Origin: Promethearchaeia archaeon
GTDB lineage: Archaea > Asgardarchaeota > Lokiarchaeia > Sigyniarchaeales > SOKP01
Assembly (NCBI GenBank): GCA_029856155.1
Contig: JAHQWL010000023.1
Location: 96,001-160,000 of the forward strand
DNA length: 64,000 bases
Direction of reading: 5' to 3'
Under the pieces are notes generated by a model that ran no database searches, was not told where the DNA came from, and was given only the letters and a program-made list of their open reading frames with translations. Within the stretch, counting starts at the first letter, position 1, and each line of letters begins with the position of its first letter. Positions 2,824 through 34,671 of this stretch are shown in pieces. Made by a program: the position numbers and the translations under genes.

Positions 2824-3495
2824 TTATATCTTGGTTTTTATTTTTTGTAAAATATAATAAGCACAATCACTTTCATTAGGATTGGCTTTTACCCATCTAA
2901 TTTCAGCTTCAATGGCTTCAATATTTTTGAATAGATGAGGATCTTTTTTTTCTTTACGAATCTCCTTTATTTTATTATCCAATGGTTCATAATATTCCGT
3001 CCACCAGCAACCCTCAGGCCAGTTCAATTGTTTGATCAGATTGAATCCATACTTGGTTATCAAATCCCGATTTTTATCCATAGTTTTGATAGCCTGTCCA
3101 AGCACTAAATACCCTCCAACCTTTAGGATTCGATGGCATGCTTCGAAGCTTTTCTTAAAACCAATTATCTGCACCACGCCCGCCTCCCAAACTATATCAA
3201 AGTAGTTTTCTGGAAAATCATTTTTTAAAAGGTCCATTCTTTTAGTAAGGATTCTACTTGTAAGGTTTCTTGCCTTTATTTTTTTGTTTAATCGATCTAA
3301 AAGCACTTGGTCAATATCTATAGCAATGATATCACCATTGGACAATTTCGCAAACTCGATGGTAAGAAGACCAGATCCACAACCTAAATCAAGTATTTTC
3401 GGTTTTTCCATCTCTGGAAGCAATTCAAACGCCTCCTTCATGTATTTAAGGAATTTTTCCCTTAACCGTTCAGTATATAGTTCCTTATATGACAT
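2824..3495 (-). CDS. Class I SAM-dependent methyltransferase
   Basis: ILDLGCGSG motif I, IIAIDID motif II, FDIVW, and RILKVGGYL. Confidence 0.9.
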   Translation of the reverse strand: MSYKELYTERLREKFLKYMKEAFELLPEMEKPKILDLGCGSGLLTIEFAKLSNGDIIAIDIDQVLLDRLNKKIKARNLTSRILTKRMDLLKNDFPENYFDIVWEAGVVQIIGFKKSFEACHRILKVGGYLVLGQAIKTMDKNRDLITKYGFNLIKQLNWPEGCWWTEYYEPLDNKIKEIRKEKKDPHLFKNIEAIEAEIRWVKANPNESDCAYYILQKIKTKI

Positions 3496-3503
3496 TTTTT
3501 TTC

Positions 3504-3935
3504 TTAATTTTTTATATTTGGATTAATTCTATTTCCACAATCAAAACATTCAGCATCATGAACACAAATCTCACCTCCACATTCGGGGCAAGTATAGAGT
3601 TTTTGTTGCTCATGAAGCCACTTCTCGGCTCCGATTTCTTGAACTCTCTTTAAATTATTAATTATGTTCACGGAATATCTATCTTGATATTGAGAATCAA
3701 TTTTTTGTAGCTTTTGACACGGAAATTTATCACATTCATAACAAAAATCTATTTCTTTTTTCAATAAGGCTGGACAATCCCTTCTAATAAATGCACATTT
3801 CTTAAATCTGATTCTGCAACCATCACAACCTTGTTTATACCCTCTCTTCTCCAATTGATCCTTCTTCTTAAGAAGAAATGCACGGCAAGCACCGCAATAT
3901 ATACCACAAGGCGCAGCTAAATTATTATTTACCAT
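3504..3935 (-). CDS. DUF3795-like Cys-rich metal-binding protein (start corrected to ATG 3935)
   Basis: APCGIYCGAC...CDGC...C...C...FCYECDKFPC plus a C-terminal CPECG...CFDCG. The track's extension to 4049 overlaps the upstream gene. Confidence 0.8.
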   Translation of the reverse strand: MVNNNLAAPCGIYCGACRAFLLKKKDQLEKRGYKQGCDGCRIRFKKCAFIRRDCPALLKKEIDFCYECDKFPCQKLQKIDSQYQDRYSVNIINNLKRVQEIGAEKWLHEQQKLYTCPECGGEICVHDAECFDCGNRINPNIKN

Positions 3936-3946
3936 TTTATCACGAT

Positions 3947-5083
3947 CTAATTTTTTATTTTTGATAGTCTTGTAAATAAATCTTCTTCTTTTGAGAGGAT
4001 TTGTAATGCGATATTGTGTAGCTCCCCAAAATCTACATGGTTTATACAATCATCTTTATATTTATCTGCAGCATTCTTCAACCTTTCTGCGATCAGGGTC
4101 CAATTCTTAGCGGATTCCCCAATTATCGGAATACACTCCCCAAGAATCTTGAATTCATTGATTTTCCATGCTCTGGTACCCTCTTTAAGCTCAGGATGTG
4201 TTAATAATTCCTCTAAAAATGATTTATAAAGCTTTCTGAAAGATGCTCCTCCTGTACCCCATGTTTCAATATATCCATAAGTAAGCTCAAACATTAGGCT
4301 TGCTAAGGAAATTTCATTACCTTTAGAGTTTGTTATGCTTTTATTTAATTTATCTTCCCATGTGAGGATAGAATTAGCAAATCCCTTTAATCCTTGGATG
4401 CCGTTATAATTCATCGAGGGTCGTAGCATATTATTAACGACTCGTTGAATCGCTAATCTAACTCCCCCAGTTAAAGGTGGGTGCTTACCATCGGGGCGAG
4501 GAGTCATAGAGAACTGAGTATTACTTGGATGTAAAAATTTAGGTCCATATGTAGAGCTTCTTGCTGTCTTCAATATATCAATTGGGACTTTTTGAAATCC
4601 CTCAAATTCGGTATCTCCTATAAATGCTAGTCCTTTCTCCTCATCATATCCAGCTAATGTTATTGCATGCCCACCAAAATGAGCTTCGTCAAGTCTTTCA
4701 TCGAAACCTTCATAAGGCATATATGCAATATCTACTTTTAAAATAAGAGGTATATTTTGAGTTAGCATCCTTTTTGATTCTTCCCAAGCTTTATCTGCAC
4801 TTGTGAATGATTGTTTTCTGAATGTAATGCCTAACAAACGACACGCCAGACTATTAGGCTCAATGGTGCCTTGCTTTCCTCCCAAGAAGAAAGGGATATC
4901 AGAATCTGGTATAAATGAAATTTGACCTGCTGTATCAAAATAACCGAAACCCATGGTACCATCCAGACCGAATGCCATAGCCTCAGACATTGGAAATCCA
5001 TAATACTCGAAAAGATCTCTCATTGAAGAAGACTCGCAGTGATATCCGTTTCTATGTACGAAATTCTTAACAATATGTTTCAT
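3947..5083 (-). CDS. BtrH N-terminal domain/DUF4872-type protein (papain-like Cys-His-Asp fold)
   Basis: GYHCESSSMRDL, SEAMAFGL, HFGGHAITLAGYD, FIGD and GTGGASFR motifs. Confidence 0.8.
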   Translation of the reverse strand: MKHIVKNFVHRNGYHCESSSMRDLFEYYGFPMSEAMAFGLDGTMGFGYFDTAGQISFIPDSDIPFFLGGKQGTIEPNSLACRLLGITFRKQSFTSADKAWEESKRMLTQNIPLILKVDIAYMPYEGFDERLDEAHFGGHAITLAGYDEEKGLAFIGDTEFEGFQKVPIDILKTARSSTYGPKFLHPSNTQFSMTPRPDGKHPPLTGGVRLAIQRVVNNMLRPSMNYNGIQGLKGFANSILTWEDKLNKSITNSKGNEISLASLMFELTYGYIETWGTGGASFRKLYKSFLEELLTHPELKEGTRAWKINEFKILGECIPIIGESAKNWTLIAERLKNAADKYKDDCINHVDFGELHNIALQILSKEEDLFTRLSKIKN

Positions 5084-26079: not shown

Positions 26080-26853
26080 ATGTTAAAAAAAGAATTACTA
26101 CAGATTCTTAATCTTATTGGATTCATTGCCACAGTGATTGTTAATTTTCTGGCAGTTATCTTGCCAATTGGACTTGGTACTACTCAAGAGTTATCTGATG
26201 CGATCCCAAACTTATTCGTTCCAGCGGGAATTACTTTTTCAATTTGGAGTATCATATATATCTTTTTAGGACTATTCTCTATTTATCAAATGAGAGATAT
26301 TTTTAAAAGCAACAAGATTGAAATGAAATACTTAGATAATATCGGATATTTCTTTATTATTGGGAGTTTAGCTAACGTATTATGGATAATTGTATGGCAT
26401 TATAAATTGGTTCCTTTATCTCTAGTTTTTATGATAGTTCTATTAATCTCTTTATTACTTATCTATACTAAACTAAATATCGGAAAATCAAATGCCTCTA
26501 AAATGGAAAAAGTTGCTGTACATATACCATTCAGTATATATCTTGGTTGGATATCTGTTGCAACAATAGCAAATGTCACTGCAGTTTTAGTCGTTCTTGG
26601 AGTGAGCAGTTTTGGATTATTAGCAGAAATCTTAACAATTATGGTAATAATTGTGGCCGTGCTCATAACTTTTGCTATGCTATTATTACGAAACGATTAT
26701 ATTTACAGTTTTGTAATAGTCTGGGCGCTATTAGGGATTTTCATTAAACAAATAACTGATAACTTAACAATAGCAATAACTGCGTTGATCTCAGGTGTTT
26801 TAATCCTTGTCGGAATTGTATATATAATTATTCGAAAGAAAAAATTGCCTTAA
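26080..26853 (+). CDS. TspO-like tryptophan-rich sensory membrane protein
   Basis: FVPAGITFSIWSIIY, NVLWIIVWHY and PFSIYLGWISVATIAN. Confidence 0.8.
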   Translation: MLKKELLQILNLIGFIATVIVNFLAVILPIGLGTTQELSDAIPNLFVPAGITFSIWSIIYIFLGLFSIYQMRDIFKSNKIEMKYLDNIGYFFIIGSLANVLWIIVWHYKLVPLSLVFMIVLLISLLLIYTKLNIGKSNASKMEKVAVHIPFSIYLGWISVATIANVTAVLVVLGVSSFGLLAEILTIMVIIVAVLITFAMLLLRNDYIYSFVIVWALLGIFIKQITDNLTIAITALISGVLILVGIVYIIIRKKKLP

Positions 26854-27090: not shown

Positions 27091-27558
27091 ATGAGATCAA
27101 ACAAGTTAATTATAAGAATAATTCAGCACAAAAAGGAAATTTATTATCCTATATTTACTATTTCAATAAGTTATTTTTTAAGTTGGCTTATAACCTTATT
27201 TGTTAGTTTTGCAGATAGTCAAGTGGCTTTGCCTTTTTTCTTTTGGAATATAGCTACTTTAATTTTAATATACTCCCTTGATGTTTATCGTATATCTAAG
27301 AAAAGAGAAGATTCTCTTTCAAAAAAGCTAATATTTTTCTTACTCCTTCTCTCACTGACTATTCATTTCATTGTTGTGCTTAGATTAGTATCGTTGATTT
27401 TTACCACTATTTATTATCTAATTCCTATCGGTATCTATATTCTTGTATCAATTTTAATTTTTTTTGTCCTACGCAAAGAAGTAATAAAATATTATTTGAA
27501 AAAAAATAAACAGATTAAAAATAACTTAAAAACCGCTATTAAAGAACAAAAGATTTAG
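27091..27558 (+). CDS. Hypothetical membrane protein
   Basis: Four hydrophobic helices; 9 nt before the next gene. Confidence 0.6.
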   Translation: MRSNKLIIRIIQHKKEIYYPIFTISISYFLSWLITLFVSFADSQVALPFFFWNIATLILIYSLDVYRISKKREDSLSKKLIFFLLLLSLTIHFIVVLRLVSLIFTTIYYLIPIGIYILVSILIFFVLRKEVIKYYLKKNKQIKNNLKTAIKEQKI

Positions 27559-27567
27559 AGAGTAATC

Positions 27568-28518
27568 ATGAATTCAAATGAACTGACTTTCAGTAAAGAA
27601 AAGAGAGAGTCATACATTTTAATGTATATTCTTATCATTATCTTCATCACTGCAGTTCTAGTTGCTCTTAGAATTATCTTTTCATTTTTTCAAGAAGAAT
27701 CCCCAGGATTGTTTATTATTGATTTGTTAATGAGAAATAGAGATCTAAATTTTAAAACCAATTACAATCTAATGTATAACGGGATCATTAATTATTACGG
27801 AGATAATCCTTTTATTAGTGAAAAAGCAATATATCTCTATTTTTGGTATTTTATCTTTTACCCGTTTTACATTATACCTATAGAAATTTCTATTTATATC
27901 TGGGATCTTTTAAGGATCATTTCTACGATTTATATTGCAATTAATATCAGCAAGGTAATTAAAAATAGAAGAGACCTACTATTTTTCTTCCTATTTTCTG
28001 GTATTGGATATTTTGCTGACATGTATTTAAATAATACGAATTGGATAATTCAACTCTTCTTATATGAATCATATATTCAATTAGAGAAAAATAATAAGCC
28101 TTTATCAGGATTTTTTTTTACTATTTGTACGTTTAAAATAATCCTGATTATAATTCCGTTTATTTTTATTCTTATAAAGAAAATTAAAGGCAAAGATTTA
28201 ATTTTTTATTTTTTACCTTTTTTGGTAATCTGTATACCTTATATAATTTTTCCAGAGTATTTTTCAATGATGGTTTCTAATTGGTTCCTAAGTATAGAAA
28301 CAACATCTGGATTCTCAATCATAAGTATATTCTTAATATTTTGGCGTGTAATTCAACCCGCGCAATTAATGTTTTTAAGTATTATACTAGTAATTATTAT
28401 TGTAAATATCAAAAATGAGAATGAAAAAACAAGAATTGGTTCTTTAATCTATATATCTGTATCTATTTTATGGGTTTTAATTTGGTTAATATTCTTAGGA
28501 TTTGCTCTTTTCATGTGA
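27568..28518 (+). CDS. GT-C fold (GT87/DUF2029-like) membrane glycosyltransferase
   Basis: Multi-TM, with IYLYFWYFIFYPF...IYIWDLLR, DMYLNNTN and CTFKII patterns typical of GT87-like proteins. Confidence 0.55.
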   Translation: MNSNELTFSKEKRESYILMYILIIIFITAVLVALRIIFSFFQEESPGLFIIDLLMRNRDLNFKTNYNLMYNGIINYYGDNPFISEKAIYLYFWYFIFYPFYIIPIEISIYIWDLLRIISTIYIAINISKVIKNRRDLLFFFLFSGIGYFADMYLNNTNWIIQLFLYESYIQLEKNNKPLSGFFFTICTFKIILIIIPFIFILIKKIKGKDLIFYFLPFLVICIPYIIFPEYFSMMVSNWFLSIETTSGFSIISIFLIFWRVIQPAQLMFLSIILVIIIVNIKNENEKTRIGSLIYISVSILWVLIWLIFLGFALFM

Positions 28519-28523
28519 ATTTA

Positions 28524-28934
28524 TCAGATTTTTTCATGATTTTGAATGATAATCAACACAAACGAAATATATATAAATATCATACATGAGAAACTATATA
28601 CTGGAGTAAAACAGGCAGATCCATAAAACCTTATTAAAAAAATTATATTAAAACCAATTCCAAAAAGCAAGGCTGTTATTATAGGGACTTTAAATTTTCT
28701 ATCAATTATTTTAATTCTTACCACAATTATCCCAGATATAACCATTATTAAAATTTTTATGGGCTCAAACAATGCTAAAAATAAATAAAAACCCATTAAA
28801 ACTAATTGATTTAGAGATATTAATTGTTGTATCCGTAAAATTAGAATAAGATTAATTATAAATGATATTATTGTTATTAAAACAATAAAAATAACTAATC
28901 TGATTAATAAATTATATCTTTTTCTAATATTCAT
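28524..28934 (-). CDS. Hypothetical membrane protein
   Basis: Four hydrophobic helices; very low complexity. Confidence 0.55.
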   Translation of the reverse strand: MNIRKRYNLLIRLVIFIVLITIISFIINLILILRIQQLISLNQLVLMGFYLFLALFEPIKILIMVISGIIVVRIKIIDRKFKVPIITALLFGIGFNIIFLIRFYGSACFTPVYSFSCMIFIYISFVLIIIQNHEKI

Positions 28935-29138: not shown

Positions 29139-29876
29139 ATGTCTGAAGATGAAGTAATTTGCAATAATTGCAGGAAGCTAACTAAAAAAAGTCATAAATA
29201 CTGCATGCATTGCGGTAGTTTATTAACACCATACTCGCCATTTCCATCGCGAGAAACTCAAGAAAGCTTACGCGATCCATTCGATACCACATCTATACCC
29301 TCAGATAAATTAGGTAAATTTCACATAAGTGAACTTAGTACTGGCTATAAAGTATTAGCATTTTTTATTATTGTCGCTGTAGTAGATTTAGTAGCATCAT
29401 TTATATTCGTGTTTGGCTACCATTTACCATTAAATACTTATTTTATGTTATTTGTAGGATTTTTTATTTTATTTATGATAATCGTTGGTTTAATATGGGG
29501 TGTAGCGGCAGGTTCAGATTTTGCTAATGCAGCATTGAAAGGTTGTGCCGCTATATTTGGTATTATCCTCCTCCTAGCAATTATTATACCGATCTATGTT
29601 ATATATGCTTTACCAAGTATTGTTGGGTCATTTTCTTTTTCTTCACCCGCGCTTGAAGAATTAGGGCAACGGATAACAGATGCCATTAGCAATGCGTTAA
29701 ACAATTTTATTGGATCAATATTTCGAGAAATTGGGGATAATATTAAAACTTCTTGGGAAAATGCGTTTGCAGATGTCGAAGTTCCTGGTTTTGAGCCATT
29801 CTTATTTCTTGGCTTATTTATTTCACTTTCTATAATTCTTATATATAAGTACCATTTAACTATTAAAAAAAAATAG
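29139..29876 (+). CDS. Zinc-ribbon + 3-TM protein with a C-terminal PGF/Loki-CTERM-like sorting signal
   Basis: CNNC...CMHC at the N-terminus. The C-terminus VPGFEP-FLFLGLFISLSIILIY-KYHLTIKKK has the motif/TM/basic-tail layout. Confidence 0.8.
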   Translation: MSEDEVICNNCRKLTKKSHKYCMHCGSLLTPYSPFPSRETQESLRDPFDTTSIPSDKLGKFHISELSTGYKVLAFFIIVAVVDLVASFIFVFGYHLPLNTYFMLFVGFFILFMIIVGLIWGVAAGSDFANAALKGCAAIFGIILLLAIIIPIYVIYALPSIVGSFSFSSPALEELGQRITDAISNALNNFIGSIFREIGDNIKTSWENAFADVEVPGFEPFLFLGLFISLSIILIYKYHLTIKKK

Positions 29877-29943
29877 GATTAATTACTAAGATTATTTTTA
29901 TTTCCTTTTTTTTAAATAGCAGTAATTTAAACTGAATTTCAAT

Positions 29944-30621
29944 ATGCTATATGACGAAAAAATGAAAGAAAACCAAAATAAAAAGTTGTACCCTCCTAGA
30001 CCAATACTCCAATTGAATGAAAAAATATACAAATTTTCAAATCTTCAATTTGTTTATTTAATTATTGGTAGTCCATTATTGACTATTTTCATTTATTATT
30101 TTCTAAAACTTAGATTTAATTATTGGATATATGAACTTACATCTATGCAGATATCCTTTTTCCTAAATTCATTTTTTAATCTAAATTCAGAAGTAATTAT
30201 CTATACTGATCACAATATATTTCCTACTATTTTTATACCTAACCACCCTTTTGAGGGAAGCTATGCTATTAGTACAAATTGTATCGCAGCTCATATTTTT
30301 AGCATTATGATTGGAATCATTCTGTTTATACCATCATCAAAAGAATCTTTAAATAAAAGAAATTTTATATGGAGAAAAATAAAAACTTTAATAGTTACGG
30401 TTGTAGGTATTTACATATTAAACATCTTTCGAATTGTATTTCTGCTATTTTTTAATTTTAAAGGAATACCATTTGAATTCATCCATGAGTCCTTATTTTT
30501 CTTATCTGCTGTAATTGGAGCTTTGTTTGTTGTTATCGTTCTTAAAAATTGGTTACCAGAATTGTTTATATCAATCTATTACATATTTTTCTTAATTTCT
30601 CAAAAAAAAAAAAATCAATAA
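29944..30621 (+). CDS. Archaeosortase/exosortase family transpeptidase
   Basis: Multi-TM, with the Cys-Arg-His triad in the expected order: ISTNCIA, LNIFRIV, FIHE. Confidence 0.85.
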   Translation: MLYDEKMKENQNKKLYPPRPILQLNEKIYKFSNLQFVYLIIGSPLLTIFIYYFLKLRFNYWIYELTSMQISFFLNSFFNLNSEVIIYTDHNIFPTIFIPNHPFEGSYAISTNCIAAHIFSIMIGIILFIPSSKESLNKRNFIWRKIKTLIVTVVGIYILNIFRIVFLLFFNFKGIPFEFIHESLFFLSAVIGALFVVIVLKNWLPELFISIYYIFFLISQKKKNQ

Positions 30622-30892: not shown

Positions 30893-31621
30893 ATGACGTA
30901 TATGTTTGAAAATGAAATGGGAGATGGGAGAACTATGGCATTTGAAGAATATTTTGATAGATTTATGAATAATCGTGATGTTTCACGTGGTGTATCAAAT
31001 CAGATTTCGATTAAACGAAGTGATTATGAGGTTCTTAAAGCGAAAGCAGAAAAGTATGAAGCGTTAGTGGAAGAACATAAAAAGATTAAGACTCAAAATG
31101 ACCGTTTACTCAAAGAACTTGATGACATGAAAGATGATGGTCGTAAATATAAGGAATTATTGGAAGAGAAGGAAAAATATTTGAATTCACTTTTACGAGT
31201 ACGCGCTGATTTTGAAAATTATAAGAAGCGTTCAGAACAAGAGAACAGTAGATACAAGTCATATGTCATGGATGTAATACTAAAGAAGTTAATAGATCAT
31301 TATGATGATTTAGTGCGAGCTTTGAACTTGCTTAAAACGCTTGAAAACATGGATGGCATTAAGAATGGATTTGAATTGATAATTAAGAATTTTGAAAAGC
31401 TATTAGCGGAGGAGGGAGTGAAACCGATGGATTCAGAAGGTGAGAAATTTGATCCATATAAGCACGAAGCTATAATAATTGAAGAGGGTAGAGATGATCT
31501 CCCAGAAAATACGATATTAGAAGAAATAACTAAAGGTTATTATATAAAAGAAAAGATTTTAAGACCTGCGAAGGTCAAAATCTCAAAAAAATCAAAATTA
31601 AAAAATATAAATGAAAATTAA
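30893..31621 (+). CDS. grpE: Nucleotide exchange factor GrpE
   Basis: LRVRADFENYKKR, GEKFDPYKHEA and KGY...ILRPAKVKIS. Confidence 0.95.
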   Translation: MTYMFENEMGDGRTMAFEEYFDRFMNNRDVSRGVSNQISIKRSDYEVLKAKAEKYEALVEEHKKIKTQNDRLLKELDDMKDDGRKYKELLEEKEKYLNSLLRVRADFENYKKRSEQENSRYKSYVMDVILKKLIDHYDDLVRALNLLKTLENMDGIKNGFELIIKNFEKLLAEEGVKPMDSEGEKFDPYKHEAIIIEEGRDDLPENTILEEITKGYYIKEKILRPAKVKISKKSKLKNINEN

Positions 31622-31661
31622 AAAAAAAATACAAATAAATATAAAAATGGAGTGATGAAAT

Positions 31662-33575
31662 ATGGGAAAAATAATAGGAATTGATTTAGGAACGTCAAAT
31701 TCAGCAGCAGCAGTATTAATTGGCGGCAAACCAACGATTATTCCAAGTGCTGAGGGTTTAACCTTGGGTGGAAAGGCATTTCCCTCTGTGGTTGCTTTTA
31801 CTAAGGATGGTCAGAGATTAGTTGGAGAACCTGCAAGAAGACAAGCAATCTCAAATCCAGATCGTACAATTACAGCTATTAAAAGGAAGATGGGTACATC
31901 TTACAAGGTAACAATTGATGGAAAAGATTATTCACCACAAGAGATTTCCGCAATGATTCTGAGAAAAATCAAAGAAGATGCCAGTGCTTATTTAGGTGAA
32001 CAAGTTTCTGATGTGATTATTACAGTTCCAGCATATTTTAATGATAATCAAAGACAAGCTACAAAAGATGCAGGAAAGATTGCAGGATTGAATGTGAAAC
32101 GTTTAATTAACGAACCTACTGCCGCAGCAGTAGCTTATGGATTAGATAAGAAAAATGCAAGGCTAAAAATCGCGGTACTGGATCTTGGCGGTGGTACTTT
32201 TGATGTCACGATAATGGAAATGGACAATCAAGTTTTTGAAGTGATTTCTACAGCAGGGGATACTCAGTTAGGAGGTACAGATATGGATAAAATTCTTGTT
32301 GATTATATAGTTTCTGAGTTTCAGAAAGATCAAGGTGTAGATTTAAGAGGAGATTCTATGGCAATGCAACGAGTTAAAGAAGCAGCAGAAAAAGCTAAAA
32401 TTGAATTATCTACATCGATTACAACTGATATTAATTTACCTTATATTACCGCAACTAAAGAAGGTCCAAAGCATCTTAATATGTCTCTAACAAGAGCCAA
32501 ATTGGAGCAACTCATTGAACCGGTATTAAAAAGGTTGGATACTTCAATCTTAAAAGCTTTACAAGACGCTGGAATGGCAAGAGGAGAAATTGATAAGATT
32601 ATTTTAGTTGGTGGACCAACTAGAATGCCCATTATACAGAAGAAATTCGAAGATTTACTAGGTAAAACTCCAGAGCGCAGTATTGATCCAATGGAATGTG
32701 TTGCGATGGGTGCTTCAGTTCAAGGTGGAGTATTAACTGGTGAGGTTGAGGATTTATTATTACTCGATGTTACACCTTTATCATTAGGAGTTGAGACTTT
32801 AGGTGGAGTTTTTACGAAATTAATTGAAAGAAATACCACAATTCCTACCAAAAAGGCTGAAACTTTCTCAACTGCAGCTGATAATCAACCCGCAGTAGAA
32901 ATTCATGTACTACAAGGTGAAAGACCAAGAGCAGTAGATAATATAACATTAGGAAAGTTTCATTTGAATGGTATTCCACCAGCTCCAAGGGGAATACCAC
33001 AGATCGAAGTCACATTTGATATTGACCAAAATGGAATTCTTAATGTTTCAGCGAAAGATAAAGGCACTGGAAAAAGTCAGTCAATAACAATTACTGCATC
33101 TACTAAGATGTCTGATAATGATATTGAACAAAAAATTCGAGAAGCAGAGAGAAACGCTGAAGAAGATCGAAAATTTCAAGAATTAACTGAAGCTAAAAAC
33201 CATGGAGAATCATTAATATACCAAAGTGAAAAACTAATGAAAGAAAATGAAGCTGTAATTGGAGATTTAAAATCAACAATACTTAACAAGATCTCTGATT
33301 TAAGAAGTGCGATGGAATCTGAGGATGTAAGTCGAATTAAAAATGCTACAGAAGCTTTACAGAATTCATTACATGAAGTTTCATCTCGAATATATGGACA
33401 ACAACAAGGTTCTTATCAAGGAGCATATCAAGGTGCACCACCTGGAGGTATGGGAGATGTCCCACCGGGTGCAGCATATGGATCTCAAGGAAAAACTCAA
33501 GATGAAATCGAAGAAGAACAATTCAGAAGAGCAACAGGCCAAGATGACAATGTAGTAGACGCTGAGTATGACTAA
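31662..33575 (+). CDS. dnaK: Chaperone DnaK (Hsp70)
   Basis: [27 protein letters not shown] and [11 protein letters not shown]. Confidence 0.98.
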
Positions 33576-33580
33576 CTTAG

Positions 33581-33606
33581 GTTTTTTTTTTATTTTTTTA
33601 TTTTTA
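33581..33606 (+). terminator. Oligo-T archaeal-type terminator after dnaK
   Basis: gTTTTTTTTTTaTTTTTTaTTTTT run directly after the stop codon. Confidence 0.5.
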
Positions 33607-33660
33607 CAAATTCACATTTATCAAATTATTATTCACGTATATAAGAAAAGGTTGTAAAAT

Positions 33661-34671
33661 ATGGCAAAGGATTATTATAAATTATTAGGAATAAATAAAG
33701 GTGCTTCAAAAGAGGAAATTAAAAGAGCCTTTCGAAAAATGGCTCGTAAATATCATCCTGATGTTAATCCAGACGAATCAAAATCGGGAGAGAAATTTAA
33801 GGAGATCAACGAGGCATATACAATTTTAAACGATGATAAAAAAAGGGATATGTATGATAGATTTGGTGTTGTAGAAGGTGATACTTCTACATATCAGAAT
33901 AGGGGTGGATCTCCTGGAAGTGATAGAGTTCGTCAAAGTCCAGACGGTACAACCTATTATTATTCTACATCGGGTTCACCTGGAGGATTTGATTTTAGTG
34001 AAATTTTCGGAAATCATAATAATTCAGGGAGTAGGAGTGGTGGATTCGATTTTTTTAATGATTTAGGCGATATTTTTGATGTTTTTAATAGGGGGGGTCA
34101 AGGGAGTACAAGAGCAAGATCTCCCAATTATAATAATACTCCAAGAGAAGGAGATGATTTAAGATACGATATGGAAATAGATTTTATGGATGCCTTTAAT
34201 GGAGGGAAGAAAACAGTTCAATATAAGGATCCCACAACTGGTCAAATGAAGTCGTTAAATGTAACCATTCCAAGAGGTATAAAGGACGATCAAAAATTAC
34301 GTCTAAAAGGGAAAGGTATGCTTGGAGAAAATGGAGGTTCTCAAGGAGATCTCTACATAGCTATACATATAAGAAATCATCCAAAATTCGAAAGAAAAGA
34401 TGATGATATATATATTGAACAAGAAGTTCCTTTTACAACCGCAGCACTCGGAGGAAAAATTCAAGTCTCTGGTGTTGAAAATTCTTTAAATGTAACAATT
34501 CCTCCGGGAACTAATGATTCATCATTATTAAGATTAAAAAATCAGGGTTTTTATAAAATAAATTCAAATCAAAGAGGAAATTTAATGGTTAAAATCAAAA
34601 TTAAGGTCCCAAAGAAATTGAATAGGAATCAGAAGGAGTTATTAGAAAAATTACAAATTTTAGGTGTTTAA
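33661..34671 (+). CDS. dnaJ: DnaJ, class B (J domain + G/F region + CTD, no zinc finger)
   Basis: KYHPD, G/F-rich linker with DIF motifs, and no CxxCxGxG repeats. Confidence 0.9.

Follow-up and report, generated by a model that had tools for sequence, protein, structure and literature searches.

A putative dedicated archaeosortase and its multi-pass zinc-ribbon target within a five-gene membrane cassette of Loki-type Asgard archaea

The locus described here lies in a 64,000-nucleotide stretch of DNA from a Promethearchaeia archaeon (positions 96,001 to 160,000 of contig JAHQWL010000023.1, assembly GCA_029856155.1, forward strand; hereafter the window), and its two central genes encode a small membrane protein with a sorting-signal-like tail, which we call the target, and an enzyme of the exosortase/archaeosortase family whose one-to-one dedication to that target is well supported by comparative genomics. 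The target open reading frame occupies positions 29139–29876 on the plus strand (245 residues) and is followed, on the same strand and after 67 nucleotides, by the enzyme open reading frame at 29944–30621 (225 residues), just as the first-pass annotation had it when it placed a protein ending in VPGF, a transmembrane (TM) helix and a basic tail 67 nucleotides upstream of a Cys-Arg-His archaeosortase. As orthologues of the enzyme align from Met7 of the window copy, its true start is probably at position 29962 and the gap between the genes may be 85 nucleotides. NCBI orthologues of the two proteins are labelled "hypothetical protein" and come from metagenome-assembled genomes of Promethearchaeota or Hermodarchaeota. 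The window is AT-rich (G+C ~26–35%), the source genome is 4.1 Mb in size and 97% complete, and the public sequencing runs in which the locus occurs are all DNA metagenomes of marine sediment and salt marsh, with no RNA run among those listed.

Membership of the enzyme in the family is indicated by its match to the exosortase/archaeosortase signature TIGR04178 (31.8 bits, cut-off 23; 35.7 bits in the genome search) and by Cys113, Arg163 and His181, which are invariant in 18 orthologues and in canonical archaeosortase H (ArtH) and are of the kind named by Haft as the suspected triad of the family (10.1101/2023.06.07.544157). Their codons fall within 30280–30486 of the plus strand (30280–30282, 30430–30432 and 30484–30486, respectively), and the product is a polytopic membrane protein. 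The best-matching family is archaeosortase H, NF041736 (E 3e-32), at 112.2 bits, which is under the equivalog cut-off of 200, and archaeosortase A (ArtA), TIGR04125, is a distant third (E 0.004; 16.6 bits, cut-off 75). Exactly two family members in the genome exceed the cut-off, the window enzyme and a canonical ArtH of 324.5 bits on another contig to which it is ~33% identical; the latter is the separate housekeeping sortase whose existence the first-pass annotation had raised as a question. In a phylogenetic tree the window enzyme and its orthologues (clade A) form a single branch (support 95/88), canonical ArtH forms another (100/100), and a mixed clade B lies between them. An enzyme profile run over 135 genomes of the family recovers the same partition as a trimodal score distribution: clade A at 284–388 bits in 22 genomes (one copy being cut by a contig end), clade B at 183–203 bits in ~9 genomes, and canonical ArtH at 125–157 bits in nearly all. 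The earlier identification as an archaeosortase thus stands as far as the family goes, but by sequence the enzyme is an ArtH-like paralogue of a separate clade rather than an ArtA-like protein, and by analogy it would be a putative endopeptidase or transpeptidase acting on a C-terminal signal. The clade-A paralogue is a bare catalytic core; the genome's canonical ArtH (L001:1444-2334) carries a C-terminal cytoplasmic extension of ~70 residues, and canonical ArtH proteins in other genomes have N-terminal extensions of 130–180 residues. A search of PDB sequences with the sortase clade gave no match.

The pairing of the two genes carries the argument for dedication. Among 400 genomes of the phylum, a target profile detected full-length homologues in one sister-family genome and in 22 of the family itself, and the clade-A enzyme occurs in exactly the same 22 of 135 family genomes, a count that is not one of independent trials as these genomes are kin. 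At every locus, including those where the genes are duplicated or reordered, the target is directly followed by the enzyme on the same strand, and chance pairing is excluded by this adjacency in all 22 of the related genomes that have either gene. Haft's dedicated systems are recognized by regular co-occurrence as neighbouring genes and by conserved TM residues (10.1101/2023.06.07.544157); here the adjacency is 22 of 22 and, as set out below, the genome holds a single target. Both the dedication proposed at first pass and the conservation of the pair, which that annotation had left to be checked, are borne out by the enzyme's own clade, by its strict co-occurrence and adjacency with the target, and by the one protein in the genome that fits the tail profile.

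The target tail (residues 214–245; 29778–29873, plus strand) reads in the window as E-V-PGFEP, a TM helix and then YKYHLTIKKK, and among 21 homologues nine of its residues are invariant (E214, P216, G217, F218, E219, P220, L222, Y236 and H239), giving the general form E-x-PGFEP-x-L, TM4, Y-x-Y-H-L and a basic end. The loss of the PGF motif from orthologs, which would have told against the original proposal, is thus seen in none of them. The tail is the best-conserved region of the protein, with an identity to distant homologues of 0.85 in the motif versus 0.33–0.52 in the zinc ribbon and TM helices. It shares the tripartite build of Loki-CTERM signals, a short motif abutting a TM helix and a basic C-terminal end, and the last 45 residues match the Loki-CTERM model NF033507 at 13.1 bits (E 0.089), short of its curated threshold of 19.9, which is exceeded by at least 21 other proteins of the genome, ordinary Loki-CTERM proteins with the form IPG[YF][ND]...KKK. 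No match to the PGF-CTERM model appeared in an NCBIfam scan at E up to 10, although HMMER filters may drop very weak matches. When a profile of the private tail was run against the whole genome in six frames, the target scored 74.3 bits and the runner-up 25.1. A word-based search with residues 200–245 returned only six close relatives, none of them named. The protein was originally described as resembling a PGF-CTERM substrate, and while the PGF motif, TM helix and basic tail are all present, on sequence grounds the tail belongs with Loki-CTERM, as a private variant, and not with PGF-CTERM.

The remainder of the target is equally unusual for a sortase substrate. An AlphaFold2 (AF2) model, with an overall predicted local distance difference test (pLDDT) score of 67, opens with a beta-hairpin zinc ribbon (residues 1–30; 29139–29228, plus strand; pLDDT 75–86), followed by a disordered lysine-rich linker, TM helices at residues 68–93, 98–125 and 131–162 (together 29340–29624, plus strand), an amphipathic helix at 170–210 and a last helix at 219–244, with VPGF in a loop. 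The four cysteines of the CxxC...CxxC ribbon are conserved at 90% or more among the 21 homologues; Pfam zinc-ribbon families match it weakly (E 0.011–0.12), all under their cut-offs, and an Atlas search with the target returned only generic zinc-ribbon membrane clusters at 0.77–0.81, the level of chance. The segment between TM3 and the motif (residues 163–213; 29625–29777, plus strand) is acidic, has a conserved core AISNA..NFF, and reaches a maximal hydrophobic moment of 0.62, a value equalled in eight of 2000 shuffles; its acidity led us to reject a reading of the amphipathic helix as a secreted antimicrobial peptide. The charges suggest an orientation: lysine plus arginine comes to 5.5 for the N-terminal linker and 3.6 for the C-terminal tail, but to 0.7 for the segment before the motif (where aspartate plus glutamate is 3.7), so that by the positive-inside rule the N-terminus with its zinc ribbon and the C-terminal tail should be cytoplasmic and the PGF motif should face outward. 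In the homologue alignment, moreover, either three or one TM helices precede the motif in all target variants, and never an even number. The arrangement that the first-pass annotation had drawn, an already membrane-embedded multi-pass zinc-ribbon protein with the N-terminus inside, three TM helices and the motif outside, is therefore supported by the conserved cysteines, the modelled helices, the charges and the odd helix counts, its weak point being the charge of the TM2–TM3 loop; the ~50-residue amphipathic segment it described is found in the window's species group, but most orthologues have ~30 residues there.

Two short variants of the target were seen. One, at L065:120-374 in genome G213, has 85 residues and a single TM helix, and the other, at L072:3575-4063 in genome G195, has 163 residues and three TM helices and lacks the zinc ribbon; both keep the invariant tail and an adjacent enzyme. 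The pair is tandemly duplicated in G248 (L074:2911-5358) and in G195 (L072:2563-7362), with one enzyme copy truncated, and in G195 a further two target copies (L071:3328-4059 and L073:3694-4455) retain the full tail but are orphans, with no sortase next to them.

A prediction of the complex formed by the enzyme and target residues 165–245 is consistent with recognition of the tail. Its score of 0.63, compared with 0.00 for the best of three controls, is one that 58 of 80 solved complexes but two of 110 mismatched pairs attained in our rough calibration, and the runs share at least 64% of their contacts with a partner pLDDT of at least 66. Confident contacts join enzyme residues Cys113, Arg163 and 185–216 to target residues 215–220 (VPGFEP) and 222–244 (TM4 and YKYH). 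Solved structures related in sequence to the enzyme were not found, which makes it unlikely that the prediction simply reproduces a known one. The model supports binding of the target tail by the enzyme, with the motif placed at Cys113 and Arg163.

Around the pair is a conserved unit of five genes, p155, p316, p136, target and enzyme, present together in at least 17 loci and held together even where it is reordered in G213; neither the cassette nor its private glycosyltransferase featured in the first-pass annotation. The first gene, p155 (27091–27558, plus strand), encodes a small protein of four TM helices, is syntenic in at least 15 related genomes and stays with the cassette despite the G213 reordering. 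The third, p136 (28524–28934, minus strand), also encodes a small protein of four TM helices, in which Cys108 and Pro111 are invariant, and it sits between p316 and the target at nearly all loci, including that of the sister-family genome G038. When every orthologue of p155 and of p136 was scanned against Pfam, no family recurred consistently, and the idea that they are GtrA-like flippases found no support.

The second cassette gene, p316 (27568–28518, plus strand), is more informative. The GT87 model PF09594 is matched by 14 of 16 orthologues (best E 1.3e-10), the window protein itself having no match, and Atlas features place p316 at 0.99 to GT87 clusters. In VIA-align its AF2 model (pLDDT 81) superposes on ALG3, PIG-M, PIG-U and PimE with Z scores of 13.9–12.0 and root-mean-square deviations (rmsd) of 4.4–5.2 over 245–264 residues, the top 18 rows all being GT-C proteins; Foldseek hits are weak (E 0.38 or worse), with PimE, PIG-U and PIG-M in the top rows, and a PDB sequence search matched no solved GT-C or other structure. 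An N57-R58-D59 motif, invariant in 16 orthologues, follows TM1 in the model and precedes the helices after it; its acidic residue is a candidate for the catalytic one expected in the first outer loop, where PimE has its catalytic Asp. A high-scoring clade of p316 (441–532 bits) occurs in 22 genomes, of which 21 are genomes with the pair and the two mismatches are at contig ends, and a housekeeping GT87 paralogue (at most 302 bits) is widespread. By predicted fold, then, p316 is a GT-C membrane protein, by sequence family probably a GT87-like glycosyltransferase, and it is a private paralogue of the cassette.

Taken together, we consider it roughly 65% probable that the cassette encodes a one-to-one protein-sorting system that works as follows. 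The target would insert with its zinc ribbon in the cytoplasm, the acidic amphipathic segment and the E-x-PGFEP motif outside, and the Y-x-Y-H-L and basic end inside. The ArtH-like paralogue would bind TM4 and the motif within the membrane, a step for which the pairing comes from genomics and from the complex model, and its Cys/Arg/His site, if it acts as that of ArtA, would cut at or near PGF, thereby removing TM4 and the tail. By the same analogy, the new C-terminus would be passed to a membrane lipid, and one may speculate that this acceptor is made or decorated by p316. The product would be a protein of three TM helices with a small ectodomain held at both ends, and since these helices already hold it in the membrane, cleavage cannot be meant for anchoring; its purpose might rather be the maturation of this one protein. 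Several points weigh against this proposal. We infer cleavage and lipid transfer only from haloarchaeal ArtA, a distant relative (E 0.004 to TIGR04125); a signal destined to be discarded is not expected to be the best-conserved region of its protein, and conservation of TM4 and Y-x-Y-H-L could instead mean a stable partner; the kinship of the genomes makes the co-occurrence counts overstate independence; the confidence of the target model is only moderate (pLDDT 67); the TM2–TM3 loop, predicted to be cytoplasmic, is nearly devoid of positive charge; and the calibration of the complex score is only rough, custom alignments having been used.

The main rival explanation takes up the second of these points and supposes that the tail is a permanent docking element, by which the zinc-ribbon protein would be held on the sortase-like protein as a regulatory or pseudo-substrate subunit of a membrane complex that the cassette encodes, and would be cleaved rarely or not at all. 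It would account for the tail being conserved most strongly, including the part that cleavage would discard, and it sits well with the long interface between TM helices that the model predicts along enzyme residues 185–216 and with the observation that all five cassette products are membrane proteins that travel together. A scaffold alone, however, would not need Cys113, Arg163 and His181, which are invariant in all 18 orthologues and on which, in the model, the motif is placed; conserved TM residues are in any case expected in dedicated systems of intramembrane enzymes (10.1101/2023.06.07.544157), and the clade-B relatives are paired with unrelated proteins that share the same kind of tail. 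We regard a stable complex as unlikely.

The first-pass annotation had suggested that cleavage might act as a signalling switch or else lipidate an amphipathic helix able to contact or bend a membrane. As a switch, a cut outside the membrane would remove TM4 and thereby alter the state of the cytoplasmic zinc ribbon, much as membrane-tethered regulators are controlled by regulated proteolysis, and the cassette as a whole would act as a sensor. That a conserved cytoplasmic zinc ribbon is kept on a disordered, lysine-rich linker would suit such a role, as would the argument that cleavage cannot be for anchoring. But the conserved genes of the cassette include none for a transcription factor, a kinase or a second protease, the conserved partners, a glycosyltransferase and small membrane proteins, pointing instead towards envelope or lipid chemistry, and the 163-residue (L072) and 85-residue (L065) variants keep tail and sortase without having a zinc ribbon, all of which makes the switch distinctly improbable to us. 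Least probable of all, and by our reckoning very doubtful, is that the housekeeping ArtH processes the target while the paralogue has some other substrate or role and the adjacency reflects co-regulation only, since the general Loki-CTERM build of the tail with its weak NF033507 match (13.1 bits) and the similar E-V-PGFE motif at the end of one ordinary Loki-CTERM protein of the genome are set against the strict 22 of 22 co-occurrence and adjacency, a tail that scores too low for the Loki-CTERM model and carries invariant residues of its own, the lack of any other genome protein fitting the private tail profile, and a complex model that passes against its controls.

A bolder extension of the sorting proposal would make the cassette an archaeal glycolipid-anchoring machine comparable to glycosylphosphatidylinositol (GPI) anchoring, in which p316 and the two small proteins build a glycolipid for which the archaeosortase exchanges TM4. 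The logic recalls GPI transamidase, which replaces a hydrophobic signal at the C-terminus by a (glyco)lipid, and the small GT-C fold of p316 is shared with PIG-U, the companion of GPI transamidase, and with the GPI/PIM mannosyltransferases PIG-M and PimE (Z 12–13, rmsd 4.4–4.9, 245–263 residues). The cutting enzyme of that system, PIG-K, is however caspase-like and unrelated to the window sortase, and as ALG3 scores equally well (Z 13.9), the match in fold is not specific to GPI enzymes. That p316 makes a glycolipid at all is speculative, the considerations in its favour being co-occurrence and the precedent of artA, which in some archaea is syntenic with the genes for the lipid-preparing PssA and PssD (PMC7157517), and we hold the machine as a whole to be a long shot.

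It is useful to compare the proposed sorting system with those already described. Nearest is ArtH with Loki-CTERM, the best-matching family, in which the enzyme has the same Cys/Arg/His positions and ~33% identity and the signal has an [IV]PG[FY] motif, a TM helix and a basic end; the window enzyme differs in falling at 112 bits where the family cut-off is 200, in belonging to a separate clade, and in having one target versus ~20 or more for ArtH, and the window target differs in its private E-x-PGFEP and Y-x-Y-H elements and in lacking a signal peptide or large ectodomain. Experiments on ArtH itself are not known to us, and a literature search found none; that search also turned up no paper in which 'Loki-CTERM' appears and, among the titles and abstracts listed, no treatment of Asgard archaeosortases. 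ArtA of Haloferax volcanii is likewise embedded in the membrane, has the Cys/Arg/His residues and acts at a PGF motif adjoining a TM helix, and its processing is linked to lipid attachment (PMC6098224, PMC7157517). It is, however, only a distant homologue and serves many secreted glycoproteins including the S-layer protein, in contrast to the single multi-pass target here, and the partner in the window is a GT-C glycosyltransferase rather than PssA and PssD. Similar in organization are the one-to-one systems described by Haft (10.1101/2023.06.07.544157), such as JDVT-CTERM with its adjacent intramembrane protease, a system of consecutive genes, one enzyme and one target, typically found once per genome and with conserved residues in the TM part of the signal, although that enzyme is Rce1-like and bacterial whereas the one here is an Asgard archaeal exosortase/archaeosortase, and its targets are not multi-pass zinc-ribbon proteins. 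Finally, HVO_0405 is also an atypical archaeosortase substrate, both of its cleavage fragments being sizeable and one staying on the cytoplasmic side (PMC6098224), but it is Tat-secreted (Tat, twin-arginine translocation) and has an internal tripartite signal followed by a cytoplasmic domain, whereas the additional parts of the window target are N-terminal to the signal. Dedicated one-to-one systems are thus already known as a concept; what is new, as far as sequence can tell, is the enzyme clade, the flavour of the signal (E-x-PGFEP ... Y-x-Y-H), the unprecedented multi-pass zinc-ribbon target and the GT-C partner.

To our knowledge, archaeosortases have been studied only in haloarchaea and have been viewed as tools for anchoring secreted surface proteins. 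Because three TM helices already keep the target in the membrane here, its processing must serve something besides retention, for instance maturation, the double tethering of a small ectodomain or the release of a membrane peptide, and the range of substrates of the archaeosortase family would be widened. The link between a sortase and a private GT-C glycosyltransferase in Asgard archaea may offer an entry into the membrane and envelope biology of these organisms, and the glycolipid-anchoring idea, if true, would mean that the archaea most closely related to eukaryotes have a sortase-based equivalent of GPI transamidation.

Pairs of this kind may not be confined to clade A. Clade-B paralogues, too, each lie beside a single protein whose tail is of the PGF[ED]P or PGFD kind, at L075:3250-3525 with 3555-4454, L078:788-1315 with 1457-2380, L079:64-915 with 918-1658, L081:1711-3240 with 3243-3962 and L077:4621-4995 with 3477-4400; these neighbours begin with an ordinary signal or anchor sequence, and their bodies, of 92–510 residues, are unrelated. 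Since the clade-B enzymes adjoin PGF[ED]P-tailed proteins of other architectures, the tail behaves as a portable signal, and private pairings of sortase and target seem to recur in this archaeal family. One clade-B paralogue, at G024:C7:1009125-1009736, is interrupted by three in-frame stops and so is a probable pseudogene.

The distribution of the cassette suggests that it has spread by lateral transfer. In the enzyme tree, the copies from another genus at L057, L058, L060 and L074 nest on a long branch within the group of the window's genus (99/99), a group that includes L035 and L047, and other members of that second genus form a separate subclade; it is this nesting, together with the patchy occurrence in 22 of 135 genomes, that points to transfer. 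Directly downstream of the enzyme lie grpE, dnaK and dnaJ (30893–34671), which we do not count as part of the cassette as they follow it only within the window's genus. Upstream, at 26080–26853, is a gene for a 257-residue multi-pass membrane protein that has no Pfam or NCBIfam match and is conserved near the cassette in several genomes, at variable distance and orientation.

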